Shown piece by piece: positions 10,095 to 26,374 of a DNA stretch of 55,535 nucleotides (position 1 is the first letter of the stretch; each line of letters begins with the position of its first letter). The position numbers and the translations under genes are program-made. The notes below the pieces were generated by a model. The model searched no databases, was not told the DNA's origin, and worked only from the letters and a program-made list of their open reading frames with translations. This DNA is from an uncultured virus (IMG/VR IMGVR_UViG_3300009110_000302) (taxonomy: Duplodnaviria > Heunggongvirae > Uroviricota > Caudoviricetes). Where the stretch lies: the IMG/VR virus record IMGVR_UViG_3300009110_000302, positions 62,001-117,535 of that record, one strand, 5' to 3'.

Positions 10095-12332
10095 ATGAAA
10101 CCATTAGAGAAAAGACAAACCCTTAAAACCAGCGGCATCCAAAAGTCTGTTAGCTTTGGAATCAAGCAGTCTGGCATCCACCACGTTCTAGGCATCTTGC
10201 GTGACCAACTTTATTCAGACAAGGTTCTTGCAATTATTCGTGAGTATTCTACCAATGCGGTTGACGCTCATATTGAAGCGGGAAATGCGGATCGTCCTAT
10301 CGAAGTAACTTTCCCAACTAAATTAAAGCCAGTATTCAAGGTTCGTGACTTTGGTGATGGTCTTACAGAGCAAGAGATTCAAGACGTTTACGCTTTTTAC
10401 GGTGAATCCACCAAACGTAATAGTAACGACTGTACGGGTATGCTAGGTATCGGCTCAAAGTCTGCTTTCTCATACGGAGACAATTTCGTTATTAATTCTT
10501 TCGTAAAAGGTAAGAAGATTACTTACAACGCCTTTATTGATCCGTCTCAAGTCGGCCAGATTTCCAAGCTGTCTGAAGAAGATACTGATGAAGAAGATGG
10601 TATTGAAATTTCTGTACCTGTTCGTGAGGATGATTGTCAGGAGTTCCTAGACAAAGGCAAGACTCTGTTTGAGTGGTTCTCCGTCCGTCCTAATGTGAAA
10701 GGTTGTAATCCTTTCGAGTATAAGGACTCAAAAGTTTTATTTTCTGGTGATAATTGGGAGTGGAGAGATGTAGTGAGTGACAGGTATCACAGTTATCGTA
10801 GTCGTCATGGCGAGTTGACTGTTGTTATGGGCAACATTGGATACCCTGTTGATTCCTCCGACTTGAATTTATCTTATGATGATAAAATTTCTCATCTTGT
10901 GTCGGAGAATTTGGTTTTGCGTGTGCCTATTGGAGATGTAGAGATTTCTGCTTCACGGGAAAAGTTACAGTTTACTGATTATACTCGTAAAAAGTTGAAG
11001 ATGCACCTTCAAACGGTTCGTGAAGAACTTTCTAGTACGATTAGCAAGCAGTTCAAAGTGTGTAACACCTTGTTTGAAGCGAAATGTTTATATGGCAGTA
11101 CGTTCCGTACAGATTCGCCTTTGTATGCTTTAAGGGATGTTATTAAAGATCATCTTGTATGGAATGGTAAAACGGTAGATGGAGACTCCTACAACACTTA
11201 CGGTACAGGTGGAGCAACTACGGTAAGGTTTAAGAAAAGTTATCGTGGTGAGCGTTACAAAAGTGACGAATGTGGCTCGTTCTCTTGCGATAAGAATTTG
11301 GTTCTTATCGAAAATGATATAGGGCATCGTCGTGGAATGATGGGTAGGATTTTACCTATCATCCACAATCAGAAGAAAACTCCTGTCATGCTTGAGTTCC
11401 AATCTTTTTCTGACGGTGATAAAATCATCAAAGCTGATAAGGTTCGTGCTAATTGGATTAAAAAGGAAAAATTCGATGGCACTCTTGTGAAGTTGTCGGA
11501 GTTGCCAAAGCATAAGATGAGTGAGTTCGTTGGTTATCAACGGAGTGCTTCCACTACCTCTGGAGGGGTTAAGAATGGTAAACATTCTGCAAAGTTATTT
11601 GAGCTTGATATAGTTACCGAAAGAAGGGGTTGGCATAGTCCAAAATCTGACTTTTGGAACATTGCGGAAGTAGACATGGATAACGGTGGAGTATTTGTAA
11701 TTATTGACAAATTCAATGCTTTGAGAGGGTTGTCCGATGAGTGTGCTAGTCAACTTATCAATAAAGTTAAAGACTTAAAAGCTATTGGAGTTAAGGTTCC
11801 TAAAGTCTACGCAGTTAAGATTAAACAACGTAGTCAGTTAGAGGGTAAAAAAGGTTGGCAGAATTTTTATGATTTTGCCAAGGAAAAAACCCTAGAGAAG
11901 TTAAACGAAGGTTCTTTAACTCAATCTTACGTCGATTACAAGTCTGCTACGGACTTTACTGGAAATCGTGAAGATGCTTGGGGTTCATATAAATCTGAAG
12001 CGTTGGAAATGTTACTGAAAGGATTGCCTCAACTAGCAGACAAAGAAGGAACGATAGCCACTTTCTTAACTAATTACCAGTTGATGAAATCGGCCAATGG
12101 TAAAGCCAAACAGTTGCAGAAATTGGTGGAGGTAGCGAACGAATATACTGACATTAAAAAGTTAAAGATTAAACCTACTTACGATCTAAAACAAGAGTTT
12201 AAGACCGTGATTGAAAAGTATTCGATGCTGAAGCACCTTGATTCTCATGGTTGGAGATGGAATAATACCAAGGAAATTCAAAGCGATGTCATTAATTACA
12301 TTAACGTCATTGACCTTTGCAACAAGAGTTAG
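10095..12332 (+). CDS. rIIA: rIIA-like protein (GHKL ATPase N-terminus)
   Basis: LYSDKVLAIIREYSTNAVDAH, VRDFGDGL, YGESTK, GMLGIGSKS; about 750 aa; rIIB-like gene downstream. Confidence 0.85.
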   Translation: MKPLEKRQTLKTSGIQKSVSFGIKQSGIHHVLGILRDQLYSDKVLAIIREYSTNAVDAHIEAGNADRPIEVTFPTKLKPVFKVRDFGDGLTEQEIQDVYAFYGESTKRNSNDCTGMLGIGSKSAFSYGDNFVINSFVKGKKITYNAFIDPSQVGQISKLSEEDTDEEDGIEISVPVREDDCQEFLDKGKTLFEWFSVRPNVKGCNPFEYKDSKVLFSGDNWEWRDVVSDRYHSYRSRHGELTVVMGNIGYPVDSSDLNLSYDDKISHLVSENLVLRVPIGDVEISASREKLQFTDYTRKKLKMHLQTVREELSSTISKQFKVCNTLFEAKCLYGSTFRTDSPLYALRDVIKDHLVWNGKTVDGDSYNTYGTGGATTVRFKKSYRGERYKSDECGSFSCDKNLVLIENDIGHRRGMMGRILPIIHNQKKTPVMLEFQSFSDGDKIIKADKVRANWIKKEKFDGTLVKLSELPKHKMSEFVGYQRSASTTSGGVKNGKHSAKLFELDIVTERRGWHSPKSDFWNIAEVDMDNGGVFVIIDKFNALRGLSDECASQLINKVKDLKAIGVKVPKVYAVKIKQRSQLEGKKGWQNFYDFAKEKTLEKLNEGSLTQSYVDYKSATDFTGNREDAWGSYKSEALEMLLKGLPQLADKEGTIATFLTNYQLMKSANGKAKQLQKLVEVANEYTDIKKLKIKPTYDLKQEFKTVIEKYSMLKHLDSHGWRWNNTKEIQSDVINYINVIDLCNKS

Positions 12333-12692
12333 ATTCGGTAGGTATTTGAGTGGTTTCGACTACTGAATCATTTAGAGGCGGCTTTTCTTTCGGGAGGAGT
12401 CGCCTCTCTACTGTAAATTAATTTAAAATTTTTTAAAAATTAGAGAAGATTATTATGAGTAAACAAGAAAACATAGACGGGGTACAGCTTGAGAAACTTC
12501 TTGCAAAGTACGAAAAAGAGTACGAGAGTATTATAGTGATGGATGATTATGATGGAGGCCGAAAAGAAGCCTTGAGAGTAGTCATAGAAGATTTGCATAA
12601 AAAAATGTGGTGGACAATTTAGAAAATTTATTATTCCTTCTCTTGCGAGAAGAAAACTATTAAATTAATAATTATTAGGATTTGAAAAAATT

Positions 12693-13043
12693 ATGGAAAA
12701 ACCAAAATTATCTTACTCAAGGCTGGAAGAAAAGCCATTACTATTTAATCAAGCAGCAATCGAAGCGGCAGTAGAGCATCTGAATAAACATGATGCTTAT
12801 TACTATCAAGGTCTGCCAGAATTTGAAGCTGATGATAAATTTAAAGATTATTATATTCAAGAACACAATAGAGAACCAGAACAAGAAGATATTCAAAAGT
12901 ATGTGGTAGATTTAATTATGGAGTGCGTAGAAGAAAACAAGAAAGAGCAGGAGAGAGTAGAGAAAAGTAAAGAGTCTTGTTCAAGGGTTAATATCTCACA
13001 AGGCCAAGAATATAATTCTAAAAAAAGAAAGAAAAAGGGTTGA
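12693..13043 (+). CDS. Hypothetical protein
   Basis: 116-aa ORF between rIIA and rIIB. Confidence 0.5.
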   Translation: MEKPKLSYSRLEEKPLLFNQAAIEAAVEHLNKHDAYYYQGLPEFEADDKFKDYYIQEHNREPEQEDIQKYVVDLIMECVEENKKEQERVEKSKESCSRVNISQGQEYNSKKRKKKG

Positions 13044-13067
13044 CCCCGCTTTAACCATCTGTATAAT
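13040..13067 (+). promoter_or_regulatory. Class A phage promoter (rIIB)
   Basis: TTGACCccgcttTAACCATctgTATAAT. Confidence 0.75.
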
Positions 13068-13102
13068 AGAGAGAGTAAGCAGTTAAAGAAGGAAAAAATT
13101 AT

Positions 13103-13924
13103 ATGATACCATATATCTTAACCGAAAAGAGTCTAACGGTTGTAATCGAAGGCAAGGCTCATACTATGAACAACGATCACCCATCGTTTGAACGTGCTAA
13201 AGAAGCGTTAAAGGACGAGGAGTGGGAGCGTTTAGAAAACCTATTTGATGTATCGAAGGCAGTCGAAGACTATCTTGATTCAGATGCAGAAATCGAGGTA
13301 AAGGATGGAGCAGTATTCTACCAAGGTGAATCAGTTCACAACTTGGTCGTGGATAAGATTTTGAACTTCATGCGTAACAATGAGCCATATCAACCCTTGA
13401 TTAAATTCCTTGGGAATATGATGGATAACCCATCTCATCGTGCTATTGATGAGCTATACTCTTTCTTGGAGCATAAGGCGATGCCTATTACTCCTGACGG
13501 CAATTTCCTTGCCTACAAGGGTGTAACCGATGATTTCAAGGACTTCCATACTCGTACCTTCTCCAATAAGGTTGGAGATGTGCTTGAAATGCGTAGGAAT
13601 GGTGTGTGTGACGATGCTAACCTTGGTTGTTCGTCAGGATTCCATGCTGGTAGCTATGACTACGCTAAAGGGTATGCGAGTAACGGAGGCAATCTTATGA
13701 TTGTTGAAATTAATCCAGCAGACGTTGTAAGCGTCCCTTATGATTGCAGTTGTCAGAAGTTGCGTACATCCAAGTATAAGGTTGTGGGTCATTACGAAAC
13801 AGTTGATGCCCCGCCCTTAAATGAAGGTCTGAATACCGATTTTGGTGATTGGGATGAAGATTATAGTAGTGATTGGAATGAGGGTTACGAACAGGCCAAG
13901 AAGGACTTTGGGCTTGACGATTAG
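13103..13924 (+). CDS. rIIB: rIIB-like protein
   Basis: LYSFLEH..MPITPDGNFLAYKGV, MRRNGVCDD...CSSGFHAG, INPADVVSVPYD..CQKLRTSKYKVV. Confidence 0.85.
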   Translation: MIPYILTEKSLTVVIEGKAHTMNNDHPSFERAKEALKDEEWERLENLFDVSKAVEDYLDSDAEIEVKDGAVFYQGESVHNLVVDKILNFMRNNEPYQPLIKFLGNMMDNPSHRAIDELYSFLEHKAMPITPDGNFLAYKGVTDDFKDFHTRTFSNKVGDVLEMRRNGVCDDANLGCSSGFHAGSYDYAKGYASNGGNLMIVEINPADVVSVPYDCSCQKLRTSKYKVVGHYETVDAPPLNEGLNTDFGDWDEDYSSDWNEGYEQAKKDFGLDD

Positions 13925-13963
13925 GAGAAAGTAATCTGCGTGTTGCTATACACGGGGGGAACA

Positions 13964-14013
13964 AAAACGAGGTCGTTGAGCTTGCCTTCAGCTTGATGGC
14001 CTCGTTTTATTTT
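13964..14013 (+). terminator. Intrinsic terminator after rIIB
   Basis: AAAACGAGGTCGT...ATGGCCTCGTTTT followed by a T-rich tract. Confidence 0.6.
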
Positions 14014-14047
14014 AAAATTATTTTAAATTTAATATAATTCGAGAAAG

Positions 14048-14344
14048 ATGTTTAAAGCAAAACCATACGTTAAAGTAGGAACAGGGGAGTGGATTGCAAT
14101 TATCCCCCGTCCTCCAAAATATGCCACACACGCCGTTCTAACGATGCACAACGATTTGAAGGAGAATGGTAAGCCCAAGACGGCAACTCTCCCCATACAG
14201 GATTTTGGGTGCTTTAAAGGGGTATCTGGGAGCTTTCACTATATCCGTATGGACAACAGGCGTAAGGTGCATGAGGAGTATAAAGAAAGTTGGAAATGGA
14301 ACGGTAGAGAGGTCGAAGGCATAGAGCAACTATTAGAACAATAG
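14048..14344 (+). CDS. Hypothetical protein
   Basis: 98-aa ORF followed by a terminator. Confidence 0.55.
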   Translation: MFKAKPYVKVGTGEWIAIIPRPPKYATHAVLTMHNDLKENGKPKTATLPIQDFGCFKGVSGSFHYIRMDNRRKVHEEYKESWKWNGREVEGIEQLLEQ

Positions 14345-14370
14345 AATTATTTAAAATTTTAATTAATTTG

Positions 14371-14398
14371 AACGGGGCATTTGCTCCGTTATTTTTTT
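14371..14398 (+). terminator. Intrinsic terminator
   Basis: AACGGGGCA-TT-TGCTCCGTT then ATTTTTTT. Confidence 0.7.
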
Positions 14399-14649
14399 CA
14401 TTTATTCCTTGCTTATACCCATGCTTAAACTATGTTGAAAGGTAGTTTGAGTGTCTTATTACATATACAAGAGACTCTTTTTAATATATGAATTAATAGG
14501 TATAAAAAATGGATGTAATTATTGTTATTGGGGGAGCGTTACTGTTAATGTATATGTCTACCCCAAAGAGAGAAAGCGGAGAGGGAGGGACTAATGTGTC
14601 CATAAACGACTCAAAAGGTGATGATAATAGCCTATTTAGTTGGTTCTTC

Positions 14650-15580
14650 TAGGTTGTCTGATATAGGAGGAAATATAGAGTAGAATAATAGGAGTAATCA
14701 CTTATTATTATTATTGTGTGTATAAACATGGGTATGTGTAAAATTTATATTTAATTTAATATAATTATTTAAAACTTATTTATTTATTTTTAATTATGAA
14801 GATAGAAGCTAACAAGAAAAAAGATTTATTTAAAATTTATGTCAATGCTGCTTTAAGCAATGTACGGGCATGGAATAAGAAAGTAAAGGGAACAAAATAT
14901 GCTATCAATAAAAAAGATAGTTATTCAGATAAATTATTAAAAATTTATAGATATGCTAATGAGCATGAAGAATCTGACTATAACAGCGGCCCCCAATTAT
15001 AAATAATATATTATAATTTAATTTAATTATATTTAATTTTTGTAGGTTGTCTGATTTTCTCGAAATAAAGCACTTGACCCTCCTATAACTATATGTTATA
15101 ATATATATGTTGATGGGGTAGGTCTCATAGCATAGTGTGTGTTGTTCATAAGCGAAGTCCTCTGTCCTGCGAGTGTAGGATGGAGGATTTTCGTGTAAAT
15201 ATAGGTGATGAAACAACACTATGTATTTCTACGCTTGTCCATACTGCGCTCCGTGCGCCCAAGCTCATCTCTTTCTGTCGAAAGAGAAAGCGGTACAGTG
15301 TGGTTGTAAGCAGGGGTTCTTCAACAAAGATAAAGAATGTAAGAAACAAAAATATAAATGTAAAGAGGTTTGGAAATGCAGAAAATGTAAAGAGGTTTGG
15401 GTTGAGTCAGAAGAATTTTTAAAAGAGCAAAAAAGAAAAATAAAAGATGGATAATATAATAATAATTATTACATTGATAGTAGCTCCTTATTTATTTTGG
15501 AAAATATGGAATCGCTCCAAATGGTAGGTTGTAGGATTCGCTCGAAATAACCGTAGGTTGTAGGATTTTTGACTAAATAA
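14650..15580 (+). repeat. Dispersed direct repeats in a very AT-rich tract (candidate iterons)
   Basis: TAGGTTGT(CT/AG)GAT at 14650, 15043, 15525, 15554; two copies continue to CTCGAAATAA. Confidence 0.5.
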
Positions 15581-15711
15581 ATACAGGGGGTAGATTCTAG
15601 GTGATTTTAGGTGATTATTTACAATTAGATTGTTATAGGCAAAATTTTAAATAATTTTAAATAATTTTAGGCTTGTTTCAAATCTAACTATATATACTAT
15701 AAAAGGACAAT

Positions 15712-15996
15712 ATGACTACTTCAAAATCTCAAAGATCAAAAAAGAAAATAAATAAACGACCTAATGACAATAATCTTGTATTAAGATATGAAGATGCTTG
15801 GAATTATATCGTTAGCCATATGCCTTTATGGAAGCAGGACATTGTAATAAACATGACTCCAGAAGAAGCTAAAGAAAAAGAAGTGCATGAACGTGCGAGT
15901 CAGATATTTGATGAGATGGCTAAAGAAGTGAGGAAGTTAGCTGAGTCAAATAGGAAGATTCCACCGCCTAAAGAGAACTGGTCAAAGCCCGAATGA
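15712..15996 (+). CDS. Hypothetical protein
   Basis: Class A promoter at 15673-15700 and terminator downstream. Confidence 0.6.
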   Translation: MTTSKSQRSKKKINKRPNDNNLVLRYEDAWNYIVSHMPLWKQDIVINMTPEEAKEKEVHERASQIFDEMAKEVRKLAESNRKIPPPKENWSKPE

Positions 15997-16009
15997 TTGT
16001 TACAATTAA

Positions 16010-16037
16010 ACCCGCCGCTCTGGCGGGTATTTTTTTT
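16010..16037 (+). terminator. Intrinsic terminator
   Basis: ACCCGCC-GCTCT-GGCGGGT then A and T8. Confidence 0.8.
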
Positions 16038-16082
16038 AAAAAATTATCTTGTTTTATTTTTAACTTTAATTAAAATGGATGT

Positions 16083-16412
16083 ATGCCAGTTAAGAAGAAA
16101 ACGAAAAACAAAGACGGCTCCATACGAAAGAAAGGTTCGGGTCGTACAAAAGGTTCGGTTAGTTTTGTAGAGGTTAGTCTAGGAGACTTAAAACAATCTC
16201 TTGAGCCTTTGGGAGACAACGCCACTATCCTTGTAGGACGTAAGTGGGTGGAAGGTCTTGAAATGGTGGGCATACGTTTATCTGCAAAGAAGTTAGACTC
16301 TTGCCAAGCTACCAGTAAAGGCAACATCGAAGCAGCAACTACTTCAGTAGACATGAAGGTAGAGGACTTTGATAGTGATGATGAAGTAGGGATAGATGAA
16401 GTAGAATTTTAA
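16083..16412 (+). CDS. Hypothetical protein, basic N-terminus and acidic C-terminus (possible DNA binding)
   Basis: RKKGSGRTKGS motif; class A promoter 16049-16076. Confidence 0.55.
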   Translation: MPVKKKTKNKDGSIRKKGSGRTKGSVSFVEVSLGDLKQSLEPLGDNATILVGRKWVEGLEMVGIRLSAKKLDSCQATSKGNIEAATTSVDMKVEDFDSDDEVGIDEVEF

Positions 16413-16465
16413 ATAATTTTATTTTATTCTTGTGTCTGTTTTAACTATGTGCATAATTGATAAAG

Positions 16466-17413
16466 ATGAGCGACAAAACCACTAAACTATTTCCTGACAT
16501 TGTTGGTCAGGACAAAGCAAAGAAGAAACTTATGTTCTTCCATCGAGGCTATAAAGCCTCTGGGATCATTCCACACCTTATGTTTATCGCACCCAAGGGA
16601 TGCGGTAAGACCACTCTTGCCAAAGCTATTGGTAAGAACCTTGAGGGTGAGAAGGGCAAGCCAAAGCGTTTCCTTGAGATCAACTGTTCTACTATCAAGA
16701 ACGTGAAGCAGTTCTTCAATCAAGTAATCGTACCTCACGTTGCGAATAAAGAATGTACCGTTCTTTTTGACGAAGCCAGCGAGCTTCCCAAGGATGTGAC
16801 AATGATGTTACTGACCTGTCTGAACCCGAACGAGAACAATCGTAACGAGTTTGCGTATGAAGATTATGTTGTTGATTTCGATTTTCGTATCCACTCGTTT
16901 CTGTTCGCCACTACCGAAGCTCATAAGATTTTCCATGCGTTGATGGATCGTTGCGAGCGTATTGATCTGGAGGAATACTCCTATAATCAGTTAGGCACGA
17001 TCATCTCTCGTCAGATGAAAGGTATTAAGTTTGAGAAGGGCGTTCTTGAGGATGTCGCCACTATCCTGCGAGGCAACGCCCGTGCTGCTCAAAAGATGGC
17101 AAACAACATGAAATCCTACTTAAAGGTTAAGGGTTCTGATAAGTTTATGAACAAAGATTGGGAGATCATGCGTGACGAATTGGGCATCCTACCTTTAGGC
17201 GTGAATCGTATTGAGCTTATCGTGTTGAAGGCACTGAAGGAGAAAAAAGAATGTTCACTGACTCACCTTGCTGCCAAGACGGGGTTGACTCCTCAATGTC
17301 TGCGTCAAGATTTTGAGATGTACCTTCAGAAGATGAATCTGATGGAGATTACAACCAGTGGTCGTGCGCTTACCAAAACAGGGCATGAATACTTGGAGCG
17401 GGAGGATGTTTAA
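16466..17413 (+). CDS. ruvB: RuvB-like AAA+ ATPase (Holliday junction branch migration helicase-like)
   Basis: FPDIVGQ, HLMFIAPKGCGKTTLA, LFDEA, ATTE, RGNAR, C-terminal winged-helix-like EMYLQKMNLMEITTSGRALT. Confidence 0.75.
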   Translation: MSDKTTKLFPDIVGQDKAKKKLMFFHRGYKASGIIPHLMFIAPKGCGKTTLAKAIGKNLEGEKGKPKRFLEINCSTIKNVKQFFNQVIVPHVANKECTVLFDEASELPKDVTMMLLTCLNPNENNRNEFAYEDYVVDFDFRIHSFLFATTEAHKIFHALMDRCERIDLEEYSYNQLGTIISRQMKGIKFEKGVLEDVATILRGNARAAQKMANNMKSYLKVKGSDKFMNKDWEIMRDELGILPLGVNRIELIVLKALKEKKECSLTHLAAKTGLTPQCLRQDFEMYLQKMNLMEITTSGRALTKTGHEYLEREDV

Positions 17414-17912
17414 AGTGATAGATCAAACCTCATATAGTATTTATAAAGATATGGAGTTAGATACTGTAACCCGTTGGAGTGAAAATAATTGGAAATGTAT
17501 AACTACAAATGGATTCTATTTAAATATAAAAATTAAAGGCGGCACACTATATGCTGATTTAGCTGAAACAGAAAATGAGTTAGGATATAATGCAATGCCA
17601 TTAATTAAATATGATAATAAAACTTTAAAGGAATGGGTTCTAAATAATAAAAAGGAAACATCATTTGAACAAATAAAAGAATTTATGAATTGGACTTGCG
17701 CTTCTGACAAAATATGGGATATTTAACACGATGAAAAATAAGAATAAAACATACTTGATTCAAGTAACTACCAAAGGAAATAAAGCTGAAGTCACTCAAG
17801 CAATGGAGGTGACAAGTAACGGATACGTTCCGACTGACAAACGTCAGGTTACTCGACAAGTGCTAAATAAGGCTTCTACATTCGTTACCAAGTAGCGAAA
17901 TAAAGTAGAACA

Positions 17913-17958
17913 GGCCGCCTACCCTTTCTGTCGTTCATCTGGGGGTGGGCGGTTTTTT
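17913..17958 (+). terminator. Intrinsic terminator
   Basis: GGCCGCCTACCCT...GGGGTGGGCGGTT then T tract. Confidence 0.7.
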
Positions 17959-18129
17959 GTTAAATAGTCAAATAAAGGAGTGTAAATAAAGACAGTAAGA
18001 TAATTTGCGGCAAGGCTAGGACGCTTGTTCCGAAATTATATTTTAGGCTGGATAAAGAATCTTATTATTATTAATTAGGTCATATTATAGCTTGCTTTCC
18101 ATTCAACTATCTCTATAATAGGAGGACAT

Positions 18130-18429
18130 ATGAAACAATTCAACACACCAACTATATTATTTATTATTGTATTTAGTATTTATTTTTTATGTGGATGTTC
18201 TTCTCCTAATACAGTGGAGTATCTTTCTCCGTCTATGAGAGGAGCTTTCGGCCCACCAGCTAAAAAGGTTGAAGATAAGTCGCCTTGGGGTGACTTGAAT
18301 AAACAGTATATCAGACAGATGTGGGGTAGATTCCCGAACGGAAGGCCTTGGAAGGGATCTTATGCTAGGCCAAATCCGTGGAAACACTCATACAGAGACG
18401 ATGTTTATTGGAGTTGGAATTTCAAATAA
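18130..18429 (+). CDS. Putative lipoprotein
   Basis: Signal peptide ending LCGC; GGAGG RBS; class A promoter 18092-18119. Confidence 0.6.
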   Translation: MKQFNTPTILFIIVFSIYFLCGCSSPNTVEYLSPSMRGAFGPPAKKVEDKSPWGDLNKQYIRQMWGRFPNGRPWKGSYARPNPWKHSYRDDVYWSWNFK

Positions 18430-18434
18430 AAAAC

Positions 18435-18462
18435 TTGCGTTTAGATTAACTACCCGTATAAT
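18435..18462 (+). promoter_or_regulatory. Class A promoter driving the noncoding RNA
   Basis: TTGCGTttagatTAACTACccgTATAAT with no plausible ORF downstream. Confidence 0.75.
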
Positions 18463-18468
18463 GGGTAT

Positions 18469-18947
18469 AGTTCTTTGAGAGATTGACAATTTAAGTTGCG
18501 GAAACGCGACAACAATTTAAGCTGACGACGGTTGGCTTAAGGGAATGGCTGAACAACCCTCCATCATAAGGGGTAAGGCATAGGGATACGTGTTAGAGTA
18601 TAATCGTATGAGACACGTGTTTCTAGTAGACTGGTAAACTTGAACTGTATTGTGCACTGGTCTTGATGGTAATGCAGCAATCCATCTTCCCATTAATTTT
18701 GTGCGTGGTGCTGGGTTACAGGCCACGTAACAGGAAGAAACACAGGTTACCTCAACCGGAAGCGCGTAAGTATTCCTCGCGTCTGCAAAGGGAGAAGCAG
18801 CGGGTAACCAACGTGAGATCCCAAAATTTCCGTAGTCCAAAATCAAAGGGCTACGGTTTCAACAAGGTCGGGAAAAACAAACGCAGTTGATGCGCCCGTT
18901 AAAGATGAGTTCACACCGAACGTGACCATCGCCTTGTTATTTTTTTT
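18469..18947 (+). ncRNA. Large structured noncoding RNA (~480 nt), family unassigned
   Basis: Own promoter, ends in stem plus T8; about ten hand-identified helices with G-U pairs, including GTTGCG-GAAA-CGCGAC, TAGGGATACGTGTT/GACACGTGTTTCTA, CCGTAGTCC/GGGCTACGG. Confidence 0.75.
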
Positions 18948-18956
18948 GCCCTAATA

Positions 18957-18996
18957 GCACTTGGCACGAATCGTGCTGCCCGATTTCAACCAAGTG
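18957..18996 (+). repeat. 39-bp dyad element copy 1 (sigma54-like box)
   Basis: CACTTGGCACGAATCGTGC-T-GCCCGATTTCAACCAAGTG; TTATTCACA at 19009-19017. Confidence 0.85.
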
Positions 18997-19306
18997 TCAA
19001 GCGTAAAGTTATTCACACCTCAAAAAATTTCTTAAAATCAACGAATTTCACACCGGAGAAAGTGGGGGTAAACAAGAAATTTTCAGGCATGATACCTCAC
19101 AAAAGCAGGGCTTTCTTTCAAAACAATTACCCCCTTTGTCGCTCATTAATTGCCATAATTGATTGACAAACTATTTTGCCGCTCATTTGTGATCGACAAA
19201 AAAATGCATCTAATGTGCATTTAATGCTTGTCACAGGCTTAACTATGCTTATAATGGTTATAACAGTTTGAGACATTAACACTAGAAAAAAGGAACTATA
19301 TATATT

Positions 19307-20209
19307 ATGCCTATAGAAGCAAAACAACAGATTGATGAGGGCTACGACTTCACCGCCAAACAGGTTGAAGTACCCCATCCAATCACCGGAAAAAAATCCG
19401 GTTATTACATGAACATCCGTGAAGACACGGGCGACATCATGGGGTGGACTACTGACCGTTACGGTCTGGTTAATCACCGTGACATAGTAGGGTTTGCAGA
19501 CAATGCGTTTGCTGACCGTGGTATCGAGGTTAATCGTAAAGTTTACGTGACCGAAAACGGTGCGAAGTGCCGTGCGGTTTATGACCTTATCGGTTCGGAA
19601 TATCAAGCGGAAGTTCCCCAAGTCGGTGACATTATGGGCTATCGTTTGACTGCTCAAAACTCGCTTGACCGTAGTCTTCGGATGGCTTATTCGTTAGGCT
19701 TAAAGCGTCTGGCTTGTTTGAATGGCATGACCACAACCGAGTCGGAAGTGGAAATGACAAAGAAACATTCTTTGAATGTTAACTTGAACGAGGTGCTTTC
19801 TCCAAAAGCCTTGGATACTGCTCTTGCCAAGATGAAGCAGAGCCTGACTGTTTACGGTCGGTTGTCGCAGTCGGAAGTTTCTCAAGAGCAAGGAATCATT
19901 ATCCTTCAGAACCTAGCAAATGCCAAGGTGTTTTCTGAAAAGGTGCGTGAGTCTATCGCTCAAGTTTGGAACGGCCAACCAGAGGGACTTGGCAGAGGTG
20001 GAGATGCCGATAAGAGTCGGAACCTTTACAACCTTAACAATGCCGTCACGGAGCATTTGACCTATGAGGTTGCGGATACTCGTTTCGAGTATGCAAATCG
20101 TGTGACCTCTCAAGTCTTAAAGAGGTTCGACAAGGCGACTCGGAACCAAAAAGTTTTGGAGAAACTTTGGACTCCCGCCAAAAATGATCAAATAGTGATT
20201 ACTGAGTAG
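19307..20209 (+). CDS. DUF932/DUF945 family protein
   Basis: REDTGDIMGWTTDRYGLVNH, ENGAK, NSLDRS...RLACLNGM...KKH, NLYNLNNAVTEHLT. Confidence 0.75.
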   Translation: MPIEAKQQIDEGYDFTAKQVEVPHPITGKKSGYYMNIREDTGDIMGWTTDRYGLVNHRDIVGFADNAFADRGIEVNRKVYVTENGAKCRAVYDLIGSEYQAEVPQVGDIMGYRLTAQNSLDRSLRMAYSLGLKRLACLNGMTTTESEVEMTKKHSLNVNLNEVLSPKALDTALAKMKQSLTVYGRLSQSEVSQEQGIIILQNLANAKVFSEKVRESIAQVWNGQPEGLGRGGDADKSRNLYNLNNAVTEHLTYEVADTRFEYANRVTSQVLKRFDKATRNQKVLEKLWTPAKNDQIVITE

Positions 20210-20220
20210 GCTACCCAACC

Positions 20221-20261
20221 GATCCCCTCGCTGCGTTAATCGTGGCGGGGGGATTTTTTTT
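20221..20261 (+). terminator. Intrinsic terminator
   Basis: GATCCCCTCGCTGCG-TTAAT-CGTGGCGGGGGGATT then T tract. Confidence 0.8.
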
Positions 20262-20330
20262 GCCCGTTTAAATAATAACTATTAAATAACGATTATTAAA
20301 TAGACCCGAAAAAATAATAACACCAAATAA

Positions 20331-20370
20331 GCACTTGGCACGGATCTTGCAGCCTGATTTTTAACTAGTG
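20331..20370 (+). repeat. 39-bp dyad element copy 2
   Basis: CACTTGGCACGGATCTTGC-A-GCCTGATTTTTAACTAGTG; left arm TGGCACG-N4-TTGCA is an exact sigma54 consensus. Confidence 0.8.
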
Positions 20371-20434
20371 GTCAAGCGAAAAAAAAAGAAAAAAAATGCT
20401 TGCATGAGTCTTAACCATCCCTATAATTAAGAAC

Positions 20435-20614
20435 ATGAGCAAAACATACGGAACCTATCAAGCAAGAAACGCTGTCAAAGCAGCACAAGTCACCAACCAT
20501 ATCAAAGCACAGAAAAAGATTGGCGTAACTCACGAGGAAGCTAAGGCTGAAGCCTATCGGATCTTCAACATCAAGGCAGCATTACCAATCTTAACCCGTC
20601 ACTTCTTACTTTAG
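20435..20614 (+). CDS. Small hypothetical protein (59 aa, not in ORF track)
   Basis: MSKTYGTYQARNAVKAAQVTNH...; class A promoter 20400-20427. Confidence 0.55.
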   Translation: MSKTYGTYQARNAVKAAQVTNHIKAQKKIGVTHEEAKAEAYRIFNIKAALPILTRHFLL

Positions 20615-20653
20615 GGGTTGACACGAGGCTAACTTTCGCTATAATTAAGGAAG

Positions 20654-20845
20654 ATGAAAATTAAAGGAATCAGAAACGGTTCGTTATATTATAACGAAGG
20701 AACCCAACGAGTAGAACGTGTTCGTAGTAAAGCGAATAGTCAATCAGTTTTCACCACTGTCCATAACAAAGCGTTGGCTGTGGTTCCGGCTAAATCTTTG
20801 AATTTGGCTAGTGGAGAACAGATTGCAAGCTACTTGCAATCATAA
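20654..20845 (+). CDS. Small hypothetical protein
   Basis: Class A promoter 20618-20645 directly upstream. Confidence 0.6.
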   Translation: MKIKGIRNGSLYYNEGTQRVERVRSKANSQSVFTTVHNKALAVVPAKSLNLASGEQIASYLQS

Positions 20846-20928
20846 ACATAACCCTCTCGCCCTTTCTTTACTTTTGGGTGAGAGGGTTTTTACTTGTTAA
20901 GAATATAACTATCATTATAATTGGAACT

Positions 20929-21501
20929 ATGAAAGAAACACTTAAAGATTTAGGGAATACCGCTTTGGATATTCTGTTAACCCTTATTTTAACTTTGCTT
21001 GCCTTGCATATGCTTTTGTTTGCTGCTGTGTCAGTAGCATCAGCGCAAGAGCTAACGCCCGACCAAACAGTTGTCGCAAAGACTATTCTTGGCGAAGCGC
21101 GTGGAGAAGGTAAGGCGGGTATGTATGCCGTTGCTTGTGTCATAGCGCAACGAGCAATTCTGCGGAACAAAACTCCAAAAGAAGTTTGCAAACAGCCTTC
21201 GCAATTTTCTTTTTGGGTTAAAGATAAAAAAACTACCCTTGACGACAGGAATAGAGCAACGGTTGAGCGGCTTATGAAGCACGATATCGAATCAGTGCGT
21301 TACGCTAAAGCTTTGGCTATTCATGTAATGAAAGTAGATCGTTCTTATACTGACCACGCAGACCACTATTGCGCGACAAGAGTTAGTCCTTACTGGGTAA
21401 GAGGGAGGACACCTGTAAGAATCATAGGCAATCATAAATTCTTTAGAATTAACTCCAGAGTTTTTGGAATAACAAAATCTTCTGTCTTGACTCAACCTTA
21501 A
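20929..21501 (+). CDS. Cell wall hydrolase, SleB/Hydrolase_2 family, with N-terminal TM/signal
   Basis: TILGEARGE...AVACVIAQR, EVCKQPSQFSFW, HY, PYW, IGNHKFF. Confidence 0.85.
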   Translation: MKETLKDLGNTALDILLTLILTLLALHMLLFAAVSVASAQELTPDQTVVAKTILGEARGEGKAGMYAVACVIAQRAILRNKTPKEVCKQPSQFSFWVKDKKTTLDDRNRATVERLMKHDIESVRYAKALAIHVMKVDRSYTDHADHYCATRVSPYWVRGRTPVRIIGNHKFFRINSRVFGITKSSVLTQP

Positions 21502-21523
21502 CCATCATTATAATTAAGAAACA

Positions 21524-21853
21524 ATGAAGGCAATCATAGAAATCGAATTAGGCAACTCATCATTTGGCAACAACGATGCTGAAAGACTATTTGAGATGCG
21601 AAACGTCATTGAAAGACTAATGGACAACGCTGACCGTATTATGGCAGCAGACGTTGGAGACTTCACAACCGCGCAAGACGCTAACGGTAACACGGTCGCT
21701 AGAATGGACATCGTAGAAGGTGGCAGGACACCAAAGATGTACGGTCTGGAAAATCAAGCACCTGATCAGCAACTGAACGTAGACCCCGCAGACAAGTATC
21801 AAGAGATGCGGAATGAAAACTGGGCAGACTCAAACGTCAGCGACCCATACTAA
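21524..21853 (+). CDS. Hypothetical protein
   Basis: Class A promoter 21487-21514. Confidence 0.6.
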   Translation: MKAIIEIELGNSSFGNNDAERLFEMRNVIERLMDNADRIMAADVGDFTTAQDANGNTVARMDIVEGGRTPKMYGLENQAPDQQLNVDPADKYQEMRNENWADSNVSDPY

Positions 21854-22088
21854 AATTATGAGCGACTATTGGACCGGACTTGTTAACTATAAACCAAAAA
21901 AGAAAATGACTGATAAAGAATCAAAGCAATTAGATATCTGTCTTGCGTTGTTGGCAATGGCATCCGCAAAGGGAGCGCACCCCACGGATATGCTTAACGC
22001 ATTCACCTTTGATATGAATCTAATAAGGAACGGGGAAGATCCTACTGAAACTCAAAAACTAATTGAGTAATTTCTGATATAAAAACTT

Positions 22089-22129
22089 GCACTTTATGTA
22101 AATCGGGCCGCACGATTCGTGCCAAGTGC
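22089..22129 (-). repeat. 39-bp dyad element copy 3 (inverted)
   Basis: Reverse reads CACTTGGCACGAATCGTGC-G-GCCCGATTTACATAAAGTG; TTATTCACA at 22151-22159. Confidence 0.85.
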
Positions 22130-22164
22130 AAGTAAAGTTTTCGAAAAAAGTTATTCACAATGCC

Positions 22165-22193
22165 TTGACAGGAGGGCGTTTCTGTGTTATATT
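22165..22193 (+). promoter_or_regulatory. Class B promoter (TTGACA-N17-TATAYT with TGTG-type extended -10)
   Basis: TTGACAggagggcgtttctgtgtTATATT; relatives at 25452, 26974, 27329, 28574. Confidence 0.75.
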
Positions 22194-22200
22194 TATTTCA

Positions 22201-22347
22201 ATGAAAGTGAGAAGGAAAAGAAAACGCAGAGCAAGAGCGAGAGTGAACCGCGAAGGCTTTATGAATAGCGCAACCCGTGAACATCGCGTGAAGAAGGGTA
22301 AAGGCTCTTTTAGGCGTAGAAAAAAACATCAAAAAAAATTCGATTAG
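22201..22347 (+). CDS. ArfA-like small basic protein
   Basis: 48 aa, REHRVKKGKGSFRRRKKH resembles the ArfA KKGKGSY-x-R-x2-KH motif. Confidence 0.5.
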   Translation: MKVRRKRKRRARARVNREGFMNSATREHRVKKGKGSFRRRKKHQKKFD

Positions 22348-22402
22348 GGCTTGCATTGTCCTGCTCGACCTGTCATAATCCTATCCAGAAAGTAAATCAA
22401 TT

Positions 22403-22843
22403 ATGTATAACAACCACACAAACACAAAACTAGAGTATCAAGACTTCAGCACTAAAATCATCGTTGCCATCACTGGCGCACCTGAAGATGTGGAAGCTGA
22501 TTTCTGGGGATTCTTCAACACCAACGCCACCGATGCGGGATTGCATCATTTTGGCGAGGCGCGTATTCATTGGCTAACACCTACCACCGCGCAATTTTAC
22601 ACAACCCGTGAGCGTTTGCTTGCTGGTATGGAATTGCGAGCTTTGAACAAACTTCTAAACGAGTCTGCCGATGGTTACAAAGGCACAAAAGGCGGTGCGT
22701 TGGCAGATGCTAAACAAATGGCGCAAGAGTGGTTTGACTCGATGGAACGTGTCACGGACATCATCAAAAAGAATGTGCGAGAGACTACTTACGGCATGGG
22801 AACCATCTCGGCCGAAAAGCCTGACAGCGATTATAGTGCTTGA
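22403..22843 (+). CDS. Hypothetical protein
   Basis: 146-aa ORF with promoter-like TTGCAT...CATAAT upstream. Confidence 0.6.
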   Translation: MYNNHTNTKLEYQDFSTKIIVAITGAPEDVEADFWGFFNTNATDAGLHHFGEARIHWLTPTTAQFYTTRERLLAGMELRALNKLLNESADGYKGTKGGALADAKQMAQEWFDSMERVTDIIKKNVRETTYGMGTISAEKPDSDYSA

Positions 22844-22875
22844 ATCAATCTTAACTATCTGTATAATTAACAAAG

Positions 22876-23619
22876 ATGAACGACCTATTAAAATTTGGAG
22901 ATCCGAACTCCAAGCTAAAGAAAATGATTCGGAAGCTTGGGCTTAAACTAAAAACCTTCACGCTTCCCGCTGGACACACTTGCCCCGGAGCAAAAGACTG
23001 TTTATCAAAAGCAGATCCTGAAACCGGAAAGATTCAAGACGGGCCAGATACGGAGTGGCGATGCTTTGCCGCTAGTGCAGAGGCAACGTATCCGTCATTG
23101 CGTAAAATGGTTTGGCATAACTTCGACTTGCTAAAGCAAGCTTTGAAATTAGACCAAGAGGCAGGATTTGAGAACTGCCCACACACTACCGATTTAATCA
23201 ATCGGAGCTTGCCCAAAAAGTTTGACATCATGCGTGTCCACGTTGGCGGGGATTTCTTTTCAAAGCGTTACTTGCAAGCGTGGGTTGACGTTGCAAGGCA
23301 AAACCCTGACAAGGTTTTTTATGCCTACTCGAAAAGTCTTAATTTCTTTTTGGAATGGGCGTTGCCTTCTAACCTTGTCTTGACTGCCTCGCGTGGTGGC
23401 AAGCATGATGAATTGATTGACGTTGCCGGTTGGAAAGAAGCTGTTGTTGTTTACAGTGAGCAAGAAGCAATCGACAAAGGTTTAGAAATCGACCACGACG
23501 ACACACACGCAGCGTTTGGAAAAGAAAACTTTGCGTTGTTAATTCACGGGACACAGCCAGCAGGGAGTATGGCAAGTAAGGCGTTGCAACTTCTTAAACG
23601 GGGAAAGGTTGCCGCGTGA
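22876..23619 (+). CDS. Phage gene product 88 (GP88)-like protein
   Basis: FTLPAGHTCPGA..C...CFAA, RVHVGGDFFS, FYAYSKS, LPSNLVLTAS. Confidence 0.7.
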   Translation: MNDLLKFGDPNSKLKKMIRKLGLKLKTFTLPAGHTCPGAKDCLSKADPETGKIQDGPDTEWRCFAASAEATYPSLRKMVWHNFDLLKQALKLDQEAGFENCPHTTDLINRSLPKKFDIMRVHVGGDFFSKRYLQAWVDVARQNPDKVFYAYSKSLNFFLEWALPSNLVLTASRGGKHDELIDVAGWKEAVVVYSEQEAIDKGLEIDHDDTHAAFGKENFALLIHGTQPAGSMASKALQLLKRGKVAA

Positions 23620-23734
23620 GCTTAGAAGTAATATTTATAATTGCCTTTTTAATATTTCTTTTCCAGCTACAAAAATGAAAATCCGAATAACAAACAAAGG
23701 CCCGCCCTAAAATTTTTCTTAAAAAAAGCTTGAC

Positions 23735-23774
23735 CACTCGCCAAAAATCGGGCAGCACGATTCGTGCCAAGTGC
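23735..23774 (-). repeat. 39-bp dyad element copy 4 (inverted)
   Basis: Reverse reads CACTTGGCACGAATCGTGC-T-GCCCGATTTTTGGCGAGTG. Confidence 0.85.
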
Positions 23775-23917
23775 TCAAAGCTAGGTGGGACATTGGCTGT
23801 CCACCCACTTAAATTATTTTTCAGACCGCTATTTGAGCCCACAAAAACAGGGTTATTCTGCACCATTTTTTTTTGCGTATCACTTGCATTATTCGTAAAA
23901 GTGGAGTATATTAAGGT

Positions 23918-24196
23918 ATGTTAAACAAAGAACTAACAGTAGAACAAGAAGCTCAACTCCTACTCAACCAAGAGATTGAGGTAACAAGCTCACGCATCAT
24001 GCAGCTTTGGGGTAAGCGTGGAATCGTTGAGGCTGTCATGGCAGATGGTCGTACGTTAGACATTAAGCTAGCTGATGGCAAGAGCGTTTTCCTAGATGTC
24101 ACCTTTGTGGGTGAAGTGCGGGAAGGCATAGCGTTTGCCAAGCAAGAACAGTCTCTTGGCCCAATCGCTAACAGCGTAGTGAAAAGCACTCTTTAG
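23918..24196 (+). CDS. Hypothetical protein
   Basis: TTGCAT-N17-TATATT promoter ends 5 nt before ATG. Confidence 0.6.
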   Translation: MLNKELTVEQEAQLLLNQEIEVTSSRIMQLWGKRGIVEAVMADGRTLDIKLADGKSVFLDVTFVGEVREGIAFAKQEQSLGPIANSVVKSTL

Positions 24197-24233
24197 GCTT
24201 TACAGGCATTTAACTATCCCTATAATTATAACA

Positions 24234-24494
24234 ATGATGAACGAACTAGACCAATTCAAAGAAGATACCGCGATGCGCCTGTTTGGGCGTAGTCGTCGCC
24301 TTGCCATCGCTGGCAACCAATGCGTTAAGTGTGGCGCACACGATCTTGAGTTCCGTGACGAACTCAGCAGCAAGGAGCATGGCATCTCCGGTTTCTGCCA
24401 GTCCTGTCAGGACGACATCTTTGGCCCCAGCGATGAGGAGAAAGAGGAGGTTCTTGGAATCACTCACCAAATGTTTGGAGGTGAAGAATGTTAG
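24234..24494 (+). CDS. Small zinc-finger phage protein
   Basis: CVKCG...FRDELSSKEHGISGFCQSCQDDIFG; class A promoter 24199-24226. Confidence 0.65.
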   Translation: MMNELDQFKEDTAMRLFGRSRRLAIAGNQCVKCGAHDLEFRDELSSKEHGISGFCQSCQDDIFGPSDEEKEEVLGITHQMFGGEEC

Positions 24495-25045
24495 ACATCA
24501 CTGACAAAAAAGCTGTAAGAAAAACTTTCCGCCGTGATGTTTACCGCAATCTTCATTTCAGAGATGAGGTTGTCTATTCTGTGCGTAAAGATGGTCTGGT
24601 TGAGGGTCACGCCCTTTGTTATGTAATGGATGGCGTTACCTTTCACGTTGGGCCTAAAGGCAACCAGCGTGTGCGTGATGAGGAGCGTAAAAACGTTCAC
24701 GCTGTTATTCGCGGGCACGTTATCAATGCCGTTTGGTATGATGAGGATGAGATGGAATGGGCCAAGAGTGCTGCCCAACAATTGGCTGAGATAGAAATGT
24801 GTGGTGTGCCTGTGAGTCGTAACACGAATGTAAGTGACTTGGATGATCCGCGCGCGTGGGAGCCTATGTATAAATGGGTAGAGGTTAAGTATAACCCTTA
24901 TAAGTTCAAGAGCTTTGTCAGCCCTGTTTATTTGCCATTTGGTTCCGAGGAGCCAGAATTCAGACCCATCTTTGAGGCTCGTAAGGTTGTTATTTACAGC
25001 GAGGACAACAAGAGCAAAGTCATGGCAATGGTTCCAATTATTTAA
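24488..25045 (+). CDS. Phage hypothetical protein (YRNLH type)
   Basis: VYRNLH...YSVR..GLVEGH...QRVRDEERKNVHAVIRG...VKYNPYK. Confidence 0.65.
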   Translation: MLDITDKKAVRKTFRRDVYRNLHFRDEVVYSVRKDGLVEGHALCYVMDGVTFHVGPKGNQRVRDEERKNVHAVIRGHVINAVWYDEDEMEWAKSAAQQLAEIEMCGVPVSRNTNVSDLDDPRAWEPMYKWVEVKYNPYKFKSFVSPVYLPFGSEEPEFRPIFEARKVVIYSEDNKSKVMAMVPII

Positions 25046-25086
25046 CTTGCCCTTCTTAACTAATTCAACGAAACCTTATTCTGTAT

Positions 25087-25335
25087 ATGAAAAATTCAAA
25101 GAAAACTGATAAAATCCTGAACGAACTCCGTCGTCAGGGATGCACGATTAAAGAGAAGAAAAACAATGTGATGATTATTCCTCCTGATTCGAATGTGGAA
25201 GCTTACACTGTCCATAGAAGTGACAGACACGTTGGAGCATTGATTGACCATTGCTTGAAAAGATATAGCCACCTTTTGAATTTCAAGAAGCTGGCAAAGT
25301 ATCACAAGAGATTTCAAAACGGAGCGAAGGACTAA
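25087..25335 (+). CDS. Small basic protein, possibly HicA-like fold
   Basis: KILNELRRQGCTIKEKKNNVMIIPP...TVH; the HicA GSH histidine is absent. Confidence 0.35.
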   Translation: MKNSKKTDKILNELRRQGCTIKEKKNNVMIIPPDSNVEAYTVHRSDRHVGALIDHCLKRYSHLLNFKKLAKYHKRFQNGAKD

Positions 25336-25340
25336 ACACG

Positions 25341-25367
25341 AGCGGCGCGAGCCGCTTTTTATTTTTT
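25341..25367 (+). terminator. Intrinsic terminator
   Basis: AGCGGC-GCGA-GCCGCT then T tract, immediately before dyad copy 5. Confidence 0.75.
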
Positions 25368-25371
25368 ACTT

Positions 25372-25412
25372 GCACTTGGCACGAATCCGGCAGCACGATT
25401 CATGCCAAGTGC
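25372..25412 (+). repeat. 39-bp dyad element copy 5
   Basis: CACTTGGCACGAATCCGGC-A-GCACGATTCATGCCAAGTG; TGTGAATAA at 25416-25424. Confidence 0.85.
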
Positions 25413-25488
25413 TATTGTGAATAACTTTCTGAAAAAAATGCCTTCCAGCCCTTGACAAACGGTCGTTTGTGTGTTATATTTATACAAG

Positions 25489-25929
25489 ATGAACGAAGAA
25501 AGACTAAAACCACTTTTTGATTTAGACGGAACCCTAATCCGTGAGGATCGTGACAGCGATCGCCTTTTTGATTTCTTTCGCCCTCACGCTATCCTCGCAC
25601 TAACAGAAGATGATTTAACTCCTCTCGGCGTACTCGTTAGAGACTCTGGAAAAGAATTTGATATCCTTACAGCGAGAGGCCATAAAAACGCAGAATTTGT
25701 TCGCATCGCTCTTACTGCTCTCGGATTCAATGTAAACAAGATCGTCACCGTTGGAGTAGACATTAACTCTCCAGAAGACATGGATAACGTCAGCAGCAAA
25801 AGAGTAGCGGAAAGGAAAATCAGAATCGCCAAATTTGTTCAAAGAAAATTAGTTGACAATGACGAACGGAATCTGGTAGGATTGGGCGAGTTAGGAGAAT
25901 TAGTAAGCCAAGATCAAAAGGAATTTTAA
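25489..25929 (+). CDS. HAD-superfamily phosphatase
   Basis: Motif I FDLDGTL, motif II LTAR, Lys, motif IV VDND. Confidence 0.7.
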   Translation: MNEERLKPLFDLDGTLIREDRDSDRLFDFFRPHAILALTEDDLTPLGVLVRDSGKEFDILTARGHKNAEFVRIALTALGFNVNKIVTVGVDINSPEDMDNVSSKRVAERKIRIAKFVQRKLVDNDERNLVGLGELGELVSQDQKEF

Positions 25930-25931
25930 TT

Positions 25932-26165
25932 ATGATAAAGAACGGAAAAGAACAAAACGTAGTACCCACCACACGCAAACAAAACCTTGCTGCTGCCAAG
26001 GCTTGTGACGACCACTATGAGGCTTGCAGCTTGTTTCGGGCGTTGCAGTACGCCAACAACATGGGAACAGGTGAGGATGACTTTGACGAATTGGCAGAGC
26101 ATTTCATCAACAAGCAAGGGCTTACGGACTACTGCGAAAACGGATTTAAGAAAGTTAATCGGTAG
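25932..26165 (+). CDS. Hypothetical protein
   Basis: 77 aa; TAG stop lies inside the class C palindrome. Confidence 0.5.
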   Translation: MIKNGKEQNVVPTTRKQNLAAAKACDDHYEACSLFRALQYANNMGTGEDDFDELAEHFINKQGLTDYCENGFKKVNR

Positions 26166-26206
26166 GACTACGGATGTCCTACCCCCTGTGGTATACTATA
26201 CGTATG
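26161..26206 (+). promoter_or_regulatory. Class C element: palindrome + extended -10 + ATG
   Basis: GGTAGGAC-TACGGAT-GTCCTACC cccTGtgg TATACT atacgt ATG. Confidence 0.75.
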
Positions 26207-26374
26207 AAAATGATTATGAAAGACATAGAACTAAACGAAAACGGAAACGCCGTGGTAGACGGCACAGAGTATGAAGTGCGTGGATTTGACCACGAAGGAC
26301 AAGAGGCGATCGTGATTCACGAATTGGATTTGATTTCTTACGACGAAGGCGATAACTGGGAGGAAATGGAATAG
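26204..26374 (+). CDS. Small acidic hypothetical protein
   Basis: MKMIMKDIELNENG...; starts at the class C ATG. Confidence 0.55.
   Translation: MKMIMKDIELNENGNAVVDGTEYEVRGFDHEGQEAIVIHELDLISYDEGDNWEEME

Follow-up and report, generated by a model that had tools for sequence, protein, structure and literature searches.

The manA RNA (RF01745) commonly lies in potential 5' UTRs and is regarded as a probable riboswitch; the genes associated with it are mannose/fructose, nucleotide, ibpA and photosynthesis genes, and this position is common without being required (PMC2864571). A 2026 preprint describes manA as forming RNA-only cages that are pentamers, decamers or 60-mers. The contacts within these cages are L5-L7' plus L8-L9' or L3-L8'/L6, with the L5-L7' kissing contact found in both pentamer types and L8-L9' in the 60-mer former (10.64898/2026.07.01.735769). 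Described elsewhere are the boxA consensus for rrn operons in B. subtilis, which binds NusB (PMC13753749), and the RNase E consensus RN|WUU (PMC5222698).

Here we analyze the window, a 55,535-nucleotide stretch of an IMG/VR record of an uncultured virus, and within it positions 18469-18947, which a preliminary description made from the sequence had taken for an unassigned RNA of about 480 nt and a new class of large noncoding RNA. We think it probable that these positions are instead an RNA-only operon of a large uncultured phage, in which the known manA RNA is joined to small swappable RNA modules. The part that is already known is manA, in a short form, and the part that is apparently undescribed is the modular, RNA-only operon layout around it. 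What the sequences show is how the operon is laid out, that its modules are independent of each other and that RNA structure is under selection. A new 480-nt RNA class is not supported, and the novelty is confined to the smaller modules and the operon layout. Three modules, M2a, M2b and (probably) motif X, are uncatalogued here; M3 has no homologue, and M0 is a stub.

The phage and the layout of the operon

The IMG/VR record has 117,535 bases and is 69% complete. Among its products are PhoH, ClpP, a sigma-70 factor, a terminase of the T4 type and a TubZ-like protein, and it has no close cultured relatives, the best hits of its terminase having about 23-27% identity. The Tubulin/FtsZ-family (TubZ-like) protein is encoded at 42731-43894, near the terminase and capsid genes. 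A tRNA-Leu(TAA) at 9273-9360 adjoins the phage sigma-70 gene, while a tRNA-Arg(TCT) lies outside the window (G000:C1:23617-23693); both read rare-type codons and stand apart from the RNA operon. Arrays of 12-nt tandem repeats (D1, D2) occupy 54620-55313. Behind a short reading frame there is a pair of neighboring hairpins at 17874-17953 (-35.8 kcal/mol), of which the second precedes a T-run.

The features of the operon are collected in Table 1. The preliminary description had reported a dedicated promoter, a boxA-like sequence and a T8 end, and all three are present. The promoter is an exact member of a phage family with 12 matches at no more than one mismatch in the window versus none in 100 shuffles, the pattern having been drawn from the window's own repeats (families D5/D6/D8); the list returned by a generic sigma-70 scan does not include it. 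Transcription is predicted to start near 18469. Copies of this promoter type span 7191-24226, and a second, 5-copy type (D9) spans 22162-28600. Between 18950 and 28553, seven or more palindromic repeats of 46-58 nt (D3, D4, D7) bound small gene cassettes. Short repeats make up the gene-free interval 19010-19210 and recur, in either orientation, in three relatives (L003, L004, L006); this interval may belong to the cassette boundary or to an origin.

Table 1. Features of the RNA operon and its surroundings, in window positions.
Feature	Position	Strand	Basis and remarks
Sigma-70-like phage promoter	18435..18462	+	TTG -35 box, conserved spacer, TATAAT; 12-copy family
boxA-like antitermination signal	18470..18478	+	Heads the operon in 25/25 manA-bearing copies
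Spacer 1 (ACAATTT)	18486..18492	+	RNase E-type RN|WUU site by sequence; putative cleavage
M0	18495..18510	+	6-bp hairpin, 16 nt; ends match module T of L035, L040
Spacer 2 (ACAATTT)	18512..18518	+	RN|WUU at manA 5' edge; 25/25 copies
manA RNA (RF01745), short form	18518..18696	+	Rfam covariance model, 71.9 bits
Spacer 3 (TAATTT)	18694..18699	+	RN|WUU at manA 3' edge; 23/25 copies
M2a	18701..18730	+	Hairpin; near-invariant apical part, freely varying stem; not in Rfam
M2b	18745..18809	+	Junction RNA of three helices (7+5+4 bp); its junction and loops are conserved; no Rfam family
Spacer 4 (AAATTT)	18824..18829	+	RN|WUU site by sequence; putative cleavage
M3	18830..18856	+	9-bp hairpin, A-rich loop; no sequence homologue found
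M4	18861..18938	+	Three helices, probably a divergent motif X whose P2 loop has a 23-nt insert; no Rfam family
T8 run	18940..18947	+	Predicted transcript 3' end, by sequence; 17-nt junction recurs after motif X in L004
Palindromic cassette-boundary repeat	18950..19007	.	First of 7 copies, family D3; parts RNA operon from DUF932 cassette
DUF932 gene	19307-20209		Own promoter at 19228-19255

RNA folding and coding potential

The 479-nt stretch folds at -149.8 kcal/mol (z = -3.47), none of 100 shuffles being as stable, and the 11 helices named in the preliminary description are all found at 18495-18938 with every position paired. Folding is better on the + strand: the z-score of the manA part is -3.5 on the + strand versus +0.9 on the - strand, and that of the 3' part is -2.7 versus -0.8. 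Together with the covariation of manA, M2b and motif X, which in each case beats all 500 shuffles, this bears out the proposal of selection at the RNA level on the + strand.

The absence of a credible reading frame also held up. Just two frames overlap the stretch, of 75 aa on the + strand and 109 aa on the - strand; both are mechanical calls with TTG starts, neither has a Shine-Dalgarno sequence or ribosome-binding site, and both cross junctions that relatives reshuffle. ARAGORN and Rfam called no tRNA, tmRNA, RNase P or self-splicing intron in 18469-18947; the preliminary description had likewise seen no hallmarks of the last three. Over 18400-19100, Rfam at E up to 10 gave just chance hits besides manA (best E 1.3).

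A short form of manA

The largest module is a full-length match to the Rfam manA model (model positions 1-192), scoring 71.9 bits against a gathering cut-off of 55.2 bits. The stretch is not unassigned, because manA covers 179 of its 479 nt above this cut-off; the strong Rfam hit removes novelty for this module and leaves it with the companions, which have no Rfam family, and with the operon layout. The window copy has P1-P4, P6, P8 and P9, with a GACG-capped P1, the closing helix P2 and the L8/L9 loop complementarity, and it is without P5, P7 and a GNRA L6. Because P5 and P7 are absent, P4 and P6 form one long hairpin, which is the 14-bp stem of the preliminary description. This form is not new, being already represented by 3 of 26 rows in one part of the 2010 alignment (PMC2864571), and as P5 and P7, though usual, are lacking in some seed rows too, their loss marks a subtype and not exclusion from manA.

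The same form is found in relatives, where 18 of 20 loci have a manA above the Rfam cut-off and the other two are cut by contig ends. We compared 25 distinct copies (the window and 24 relatives, leaving out identical, duplicate and truncated loci), which are mutually related and were gathered with the manA pattern, and hence are not independent. The short form is common to all 25. None has the L5/L7 loop motifs, all have the L8 motif, and 24 have its L9 partner, the exception being a variant with one mismatch. When 23 of the copies are aligned, 98.8% of cells are paired (versus at most 52% in slid controls), 20 of 56 pairs show double changes, and 0 of 500 shuffles reach the score. Core helices P1, P2, P3, P4, P8 and P9 are supported by covariation in these 23 copies. 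The L8/L9 helix is 99% paired yet invariant, and as it never varies on both sides, it is without covariation support here. An L1/L6 pseudoknot was considered and dropped, since local hairpins account for the same changes. A search of GTDB genomes with the manA-subtype pattern gave 0 matches.

Companion modules

M0 consists of the first 10 nt and nearly the last 9 nt of a module, T, that occupies the same position in L035 and L040, where it is 151 and 176 nt long. Because of this likeness to both ends of module T, we read it as a deletion remnant, probably the fused ends of this tRNA-shaped module with the middle lost; both spacers and the outer stem were retained. Module T (120-210 nt) is upstream of manA in L003, L004, L013, L021, L027, L028, L035, L040 and others, and in it a large, variable middle part is framed by a T-loop and an acceptor stem like that of tRNA. 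Neither ARAGORN nor Rfam called it in the relative loci.

The M2a hairpin is represented by 15 distinct copies. It is found in the RNA operons of L025, L028, L080, L087 and L100, and in L025, L080 and L087 it is placed inside another module. Of 12 other loci examined, 9 have it in other phages, in a short gap separating genes of the same strand, and two look like chance matches within reading frames. The intergenic copies are at positions 901-918 of L084, L085, L088, L093, L095, L098 and L106-L108; the one in L085 stands between a phrog_2402 gene and primase. M2a is a candidate for a widespread cis element in phages, and between such genes (for example, before primase) it might act as a protein-binding site. 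A scan of GTDB genomes for M2a gave 0 matches, and the L085 hairpin searched against 50,697 phage records gave just matches at E 8.

M2b is a junction RNA that covaries. In its 7 distinct copies, 16 of 16 pairs are formed in every copy, and each of the three helices has pairs in which the window copy differs from the others at both bases. With the window left out, the 6 relatives show double changes at 5 pairs, a score that none of 500 shuffles attains; a model built from these 6 matches the window copy (53.9 bits, E 2e-13) and nothing besides. M2b is also independent of manA, in that 5 of the 7 distinct carriers have no manA nearby and a 100% complete manA-bearing record is missing M2b. The M2b model matched terminator hairpins only on 40 further loci, and 0 of 4 whole relative records. 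We also considered M2 as an HDV-like, pistol or twister ribozyme and dropped the idea, since Rfam gave no hit and the helices required were not seen.

The sole match to a regular expression for M3 was the copy in the window itself. A hairpin of different sequence lies equally far behind M2b in four relatives (L028, L079, L080, L083) out of six, the other two (L081, L100) having none at this position.

Motif X, which we defined from 11 relatives, has three helices around a conserved TTAAAG junction. Its alignment is 94.9% paired with double changes at 5 of 9 pairs, exceeding all 500 shuffles. We regard M4 as probably a member: its positions 18864-18935 fit the three helices by hand, it has a 17-nt downstream junction in common with the motif X of L004, and it ranks first in the 117-kb genome with a descriptor weighted on the 11 relatives (37.3 versus 28.8 for the next), although the free length of its P2 loop was set with knowledge of M4. 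On the other hand, M4 scores only 7 bits with a covariance model made without the window, too low to be reported at E up to 5 over the window, and nhmmer compares M4 with motif X at E 5.6. A viral scan for motif X returned 38 loci, mostly chance except L061/L062, which repeat L004/L005; a scan for M4-like sequences returned 37, none M4-like save the identical copy. Seven weak model hits among 70 loci, with broken pairs and pattern-selected, were not counted.

Modules are reshuffled among relatives

Searching with the manA pattern brought up 6 loci from viruses and 30 from metagenomes; a further one came from the adjoining DUF932 protein. The first four relatives have only manA in common (88-90% identity), and their flanking modules differ. 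The common plan is a promoter, a boxA-like signal, folded modules with A/U spacers and a T-run. We count 26 module orders among 41 loci, a figure that is approximate because the signatures are crude, some loci are cut short and some modules were missed. One relative (L028) has manA, M2a and M2b in the window's order.

The whole 479 nt is found only in an identical copy and, judging by RNA contigs, in near-identical strains. A blastn search of it against 50,697 phage records gave 2 chance hits, and the 3' 251 nt matched one of 5 records, the identical copy. Homologues with covariation are found for manA, M2b and motif X; for the whole stretch, none turned up in these searches beyond such strains.

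Rfam has no family for any companion module in 20 relative loci, and ARAGORN found one true tRNA in 18 loci, outside the operons. L003-L040, L079-L083 and L087 hold at least seven further modules that recur and are uncatalogued (labeled Y, Z, W, V, U, S, R and Q), and none had an Rfam match in the 20 loci tested. In L079 and L100, a short lysine-rich reading frame with a similar start lies within or just after the RNA operon. The window modules have 0 occurrences in the supplements of Fremin and Kyrpides (PMC10690425) other than files 1, 2 and 4, and the 10,006 candidates reported there may still include them. In the mainly open literature, we found no description of a boxA-led, shuffled RNA-only operon around manA.

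Processing signals and RNA-library contigs

The boxA-like signals of several relatives contain the core of the B. subtilis rrn consensus. All 25 copies have an RN|WUU site within 11 nt before manA P1, and 23 of them have one within the 10 nt that follow manA. For comparison, 14% of random windows in the same loci contain such a site, and shuffled manA-edge windows (1000 rounds) gave means of 7.7 and 11.4 copies and maxima of 16 and 19. Since the copies are related and the spacer was noticed before counting, these counts demonstrate conservation and not cleavage. No RN|WUU site is found between M2a and M2b in the window.

We also compared 4 of 13 listed sequencing runs, from 4 studies, as contigs only. 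The runs had been found with the window sequence, the libraries may contain DNA, and the contigs carry neither strand nor ends. No run contained as much as half of the sequence words of the stretch (best share 0.09). Run X1 covers 18620-18797 and run X2 18659-18808, each with at most 10 differences and each bridging manA, M2a and M2b. Contigs of two further studies (X3, X9) cover manA, and one from X9 runs from the 3' end of a module T into manA. The flanking genes are uncovered save for one 36-nt low-complexity match. M3 and M4 are without cover in the 4 runs, which proves nothing. Contigs list no place where many molecules begin or end, as ends are not resolvable from them. These data, in which close relatives are covered from manA to M2b, hint weakly at transcription of such operons into a single precursor.

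A proposed mechanism

Based on these data, we propose a mechanism in four steps. In the first, as read from the sequence and the relatives, a promoter is followed by a boxA-like signal, independently folding modules with A/U spacers and a T-run. Second, boxA would recruit the host NusB-S10 complex as at rRNA operons, and because of this recruitment the untranslated transcript would escape Rho; we judge Nus antitermination at boxA likely. Third, RNase E of the host would cut the RN|WUU spacers and release stable pieces, namely manA (~180 nt), M2a+M2b (~125 nt) and M3/M4, a step that we hold to be probable. Lastly, the pieces could act in trans as decoys or scaffolds for putative protein partners during host takeover or counter-defence. 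This last step is tentative. It draws on invariant loops over exchangeable stems, on turnover like that of accessory genes and on the presence of M2a in cis elsewhere, and it would explain why loops are invariant, why stems covary and why modules are gained, lost and reordered.

One could go further and picture a trans RNA effector array that is the RNA-only counterpart of anti-defence gene islands. Its leader would be copied from rRNA operons and its transcript cut by RNase E; M2b and X would be new small RNA classes, M2a would be a decoy copied from a protein-binding hairpin that serves other phages in cis, and the P5/P7-less manA would assemble via L8-L9' alone, in an architecture not yet seen and possibly with its operon mates. 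Taken jointly, these proposals are speculative and unlikely to hold in every part.

Alternative explanations

The transcript could also stay largely uncut and serve as a beads-on-a-string sponge or scaffold, its A/U spacers merely insulating the folding of the modules. The contigs of two studies that bridge manA, M2a and M2b are what this predicts; two of them run across spacer 3, which means uncut RNA or DNA carry-over and so fits an uncut transcript too. The missing site between M2a and M2b and the insertion of M2a within other modules point the same way. However, the RN|WUU order is much less frequent in shuffled spacers than in the real ones, the tRNA-like ends of module T suggest processing, and contigs are unable to show ends. 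We therefore rate an uncut transcript as rather unlikely, and favor release of the pieces.

A second alternative is that manA is a cis-regulatory leader or riboswitch for the downstream DUF932 gene or for the RNA modules. Its common placement in potential 5' UTRs (PMC2864571) would agree with this, as would a cyanophage-type locus (L002) in which a gene starts directly behind manA. The window manA, however, lies outside any metabolic-gene 5' UTR and is followed by 250 nt of other RNA modules, the T8 run, the palindromic boundary and the separate promoter of the DUF932 gene. A cis switch is improbable here because these last three precede the next gene; furthermore, the sequence after manA varies among relatives, and no alternative terminator/antiterminator fold was seen. 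As part of the explanation that we favor, the window manA is probably a free RNA rather than a 5'-UTR switch.

The idea of the preliminary description, that the stretch is one large RNA (here taken to have a single tertiary fold), can point to the one promoter and one T-run that enclose it, to its folding z-score and to the manA-M2a-M2b order that near-identical strains and L028 keep. It fails because relatives share the pieces separately and in other orders. In addition, manA is known as a family that stands alone, the centroid lacks the long-range pairs present in the MFE fold, and no whole-length homologue was found. This reading is largely refuted by the shuffled modules and is very improbable. 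Hardly credible, finally, is the notion that a recombination hot spot has gathered selfish or DNA-level repeats here and that the modules have no function as RNA: the operon does abut a palindromic cassette boundary where units swap, and M0 does resemble a decayed module, but the covariation tolerates G-U pairs on one strand, the minus strand folds no better than its own shuffles, each module is single-copy in the genome, and RNA-library contigs cover modules.

Comparison with known systems

GOLLD, ROOL and OLE are single RNAs of several hundred nt each. The operon resembles them in being protein-free structured RNA, and manA has been reported to self-assemble too (10.64898/2026.07.01.735769). 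However, there is no Rfam match to these families in 18400-19100, even at E up to 10, and the stretch consists of separable pieces, each 30-180 nt long, in a chain, so the likeness to GOLLD and ROOL drawn in the preliminary description does not stand.

In its promoter, boxA-like sequence and untranslated cargo, the operon is similar to an rrn operon leader (PMC13753749), and in the RN|WUU sites at module edges it is similar to RNase E-processed polycistronic precursors (PMC5222698), both likenesses being ones of sequence. Unlike in either, the cargo is phage-encoded, is neither rRNA nor tRNA, and comprises a hypervariable set of modules. By analogy of context, RNAC and RNAD of phage T4 are also small phage RNAs of obscure role in a stable-RNA region (PMC3014915, PMC9697503), but the window operon is without a tRNA gene and has manA and swappable modules. 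The ncRNA cluster of cyanophage S-CREM1 (wcaG, manA, abiF; PMC9964418) likewise has manA beside other small phage RNAs; the companions in the window are not wcaG or abiF and belong to no Rfam family. The operon family yields compact, covarying motifs absent from Rfam (M2a, M2b and X, with more in relatives), whose small size suits them to direct structural studies and pull-downs.

The closest comparison is with manA itself, which since 2010 has been listed as a probable riboswitch without a ligand and for which RNA-only cages were reported in 2026. The window copy, here in a phage, is like described manA (RF01745; Weinberg et al. 2010, PMC2864571) in its GACG-capped P1, its P2, P3, P8 and P9 and its complementary L8/L9, and differs in standing within an RNA-only operon and not in a metabolic-gene 5' UTR. 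That it is flanked by processing-type sites, with no protein gene to regulate, speaks for a free RNA in the case of this subtype at least. Compared with the cage formers (10.64898/2026.07.01.735769), it lacks P5, P7 and a GNRA L6; by its sequence, with numbering that we mapped from the Rfam consensus, it cannot form the L5-L7' contact and keeps L8-L9' complementarity. Because it is without the kissing loop of both published pentamers, the short manA is a natural deletion test of the cage model.
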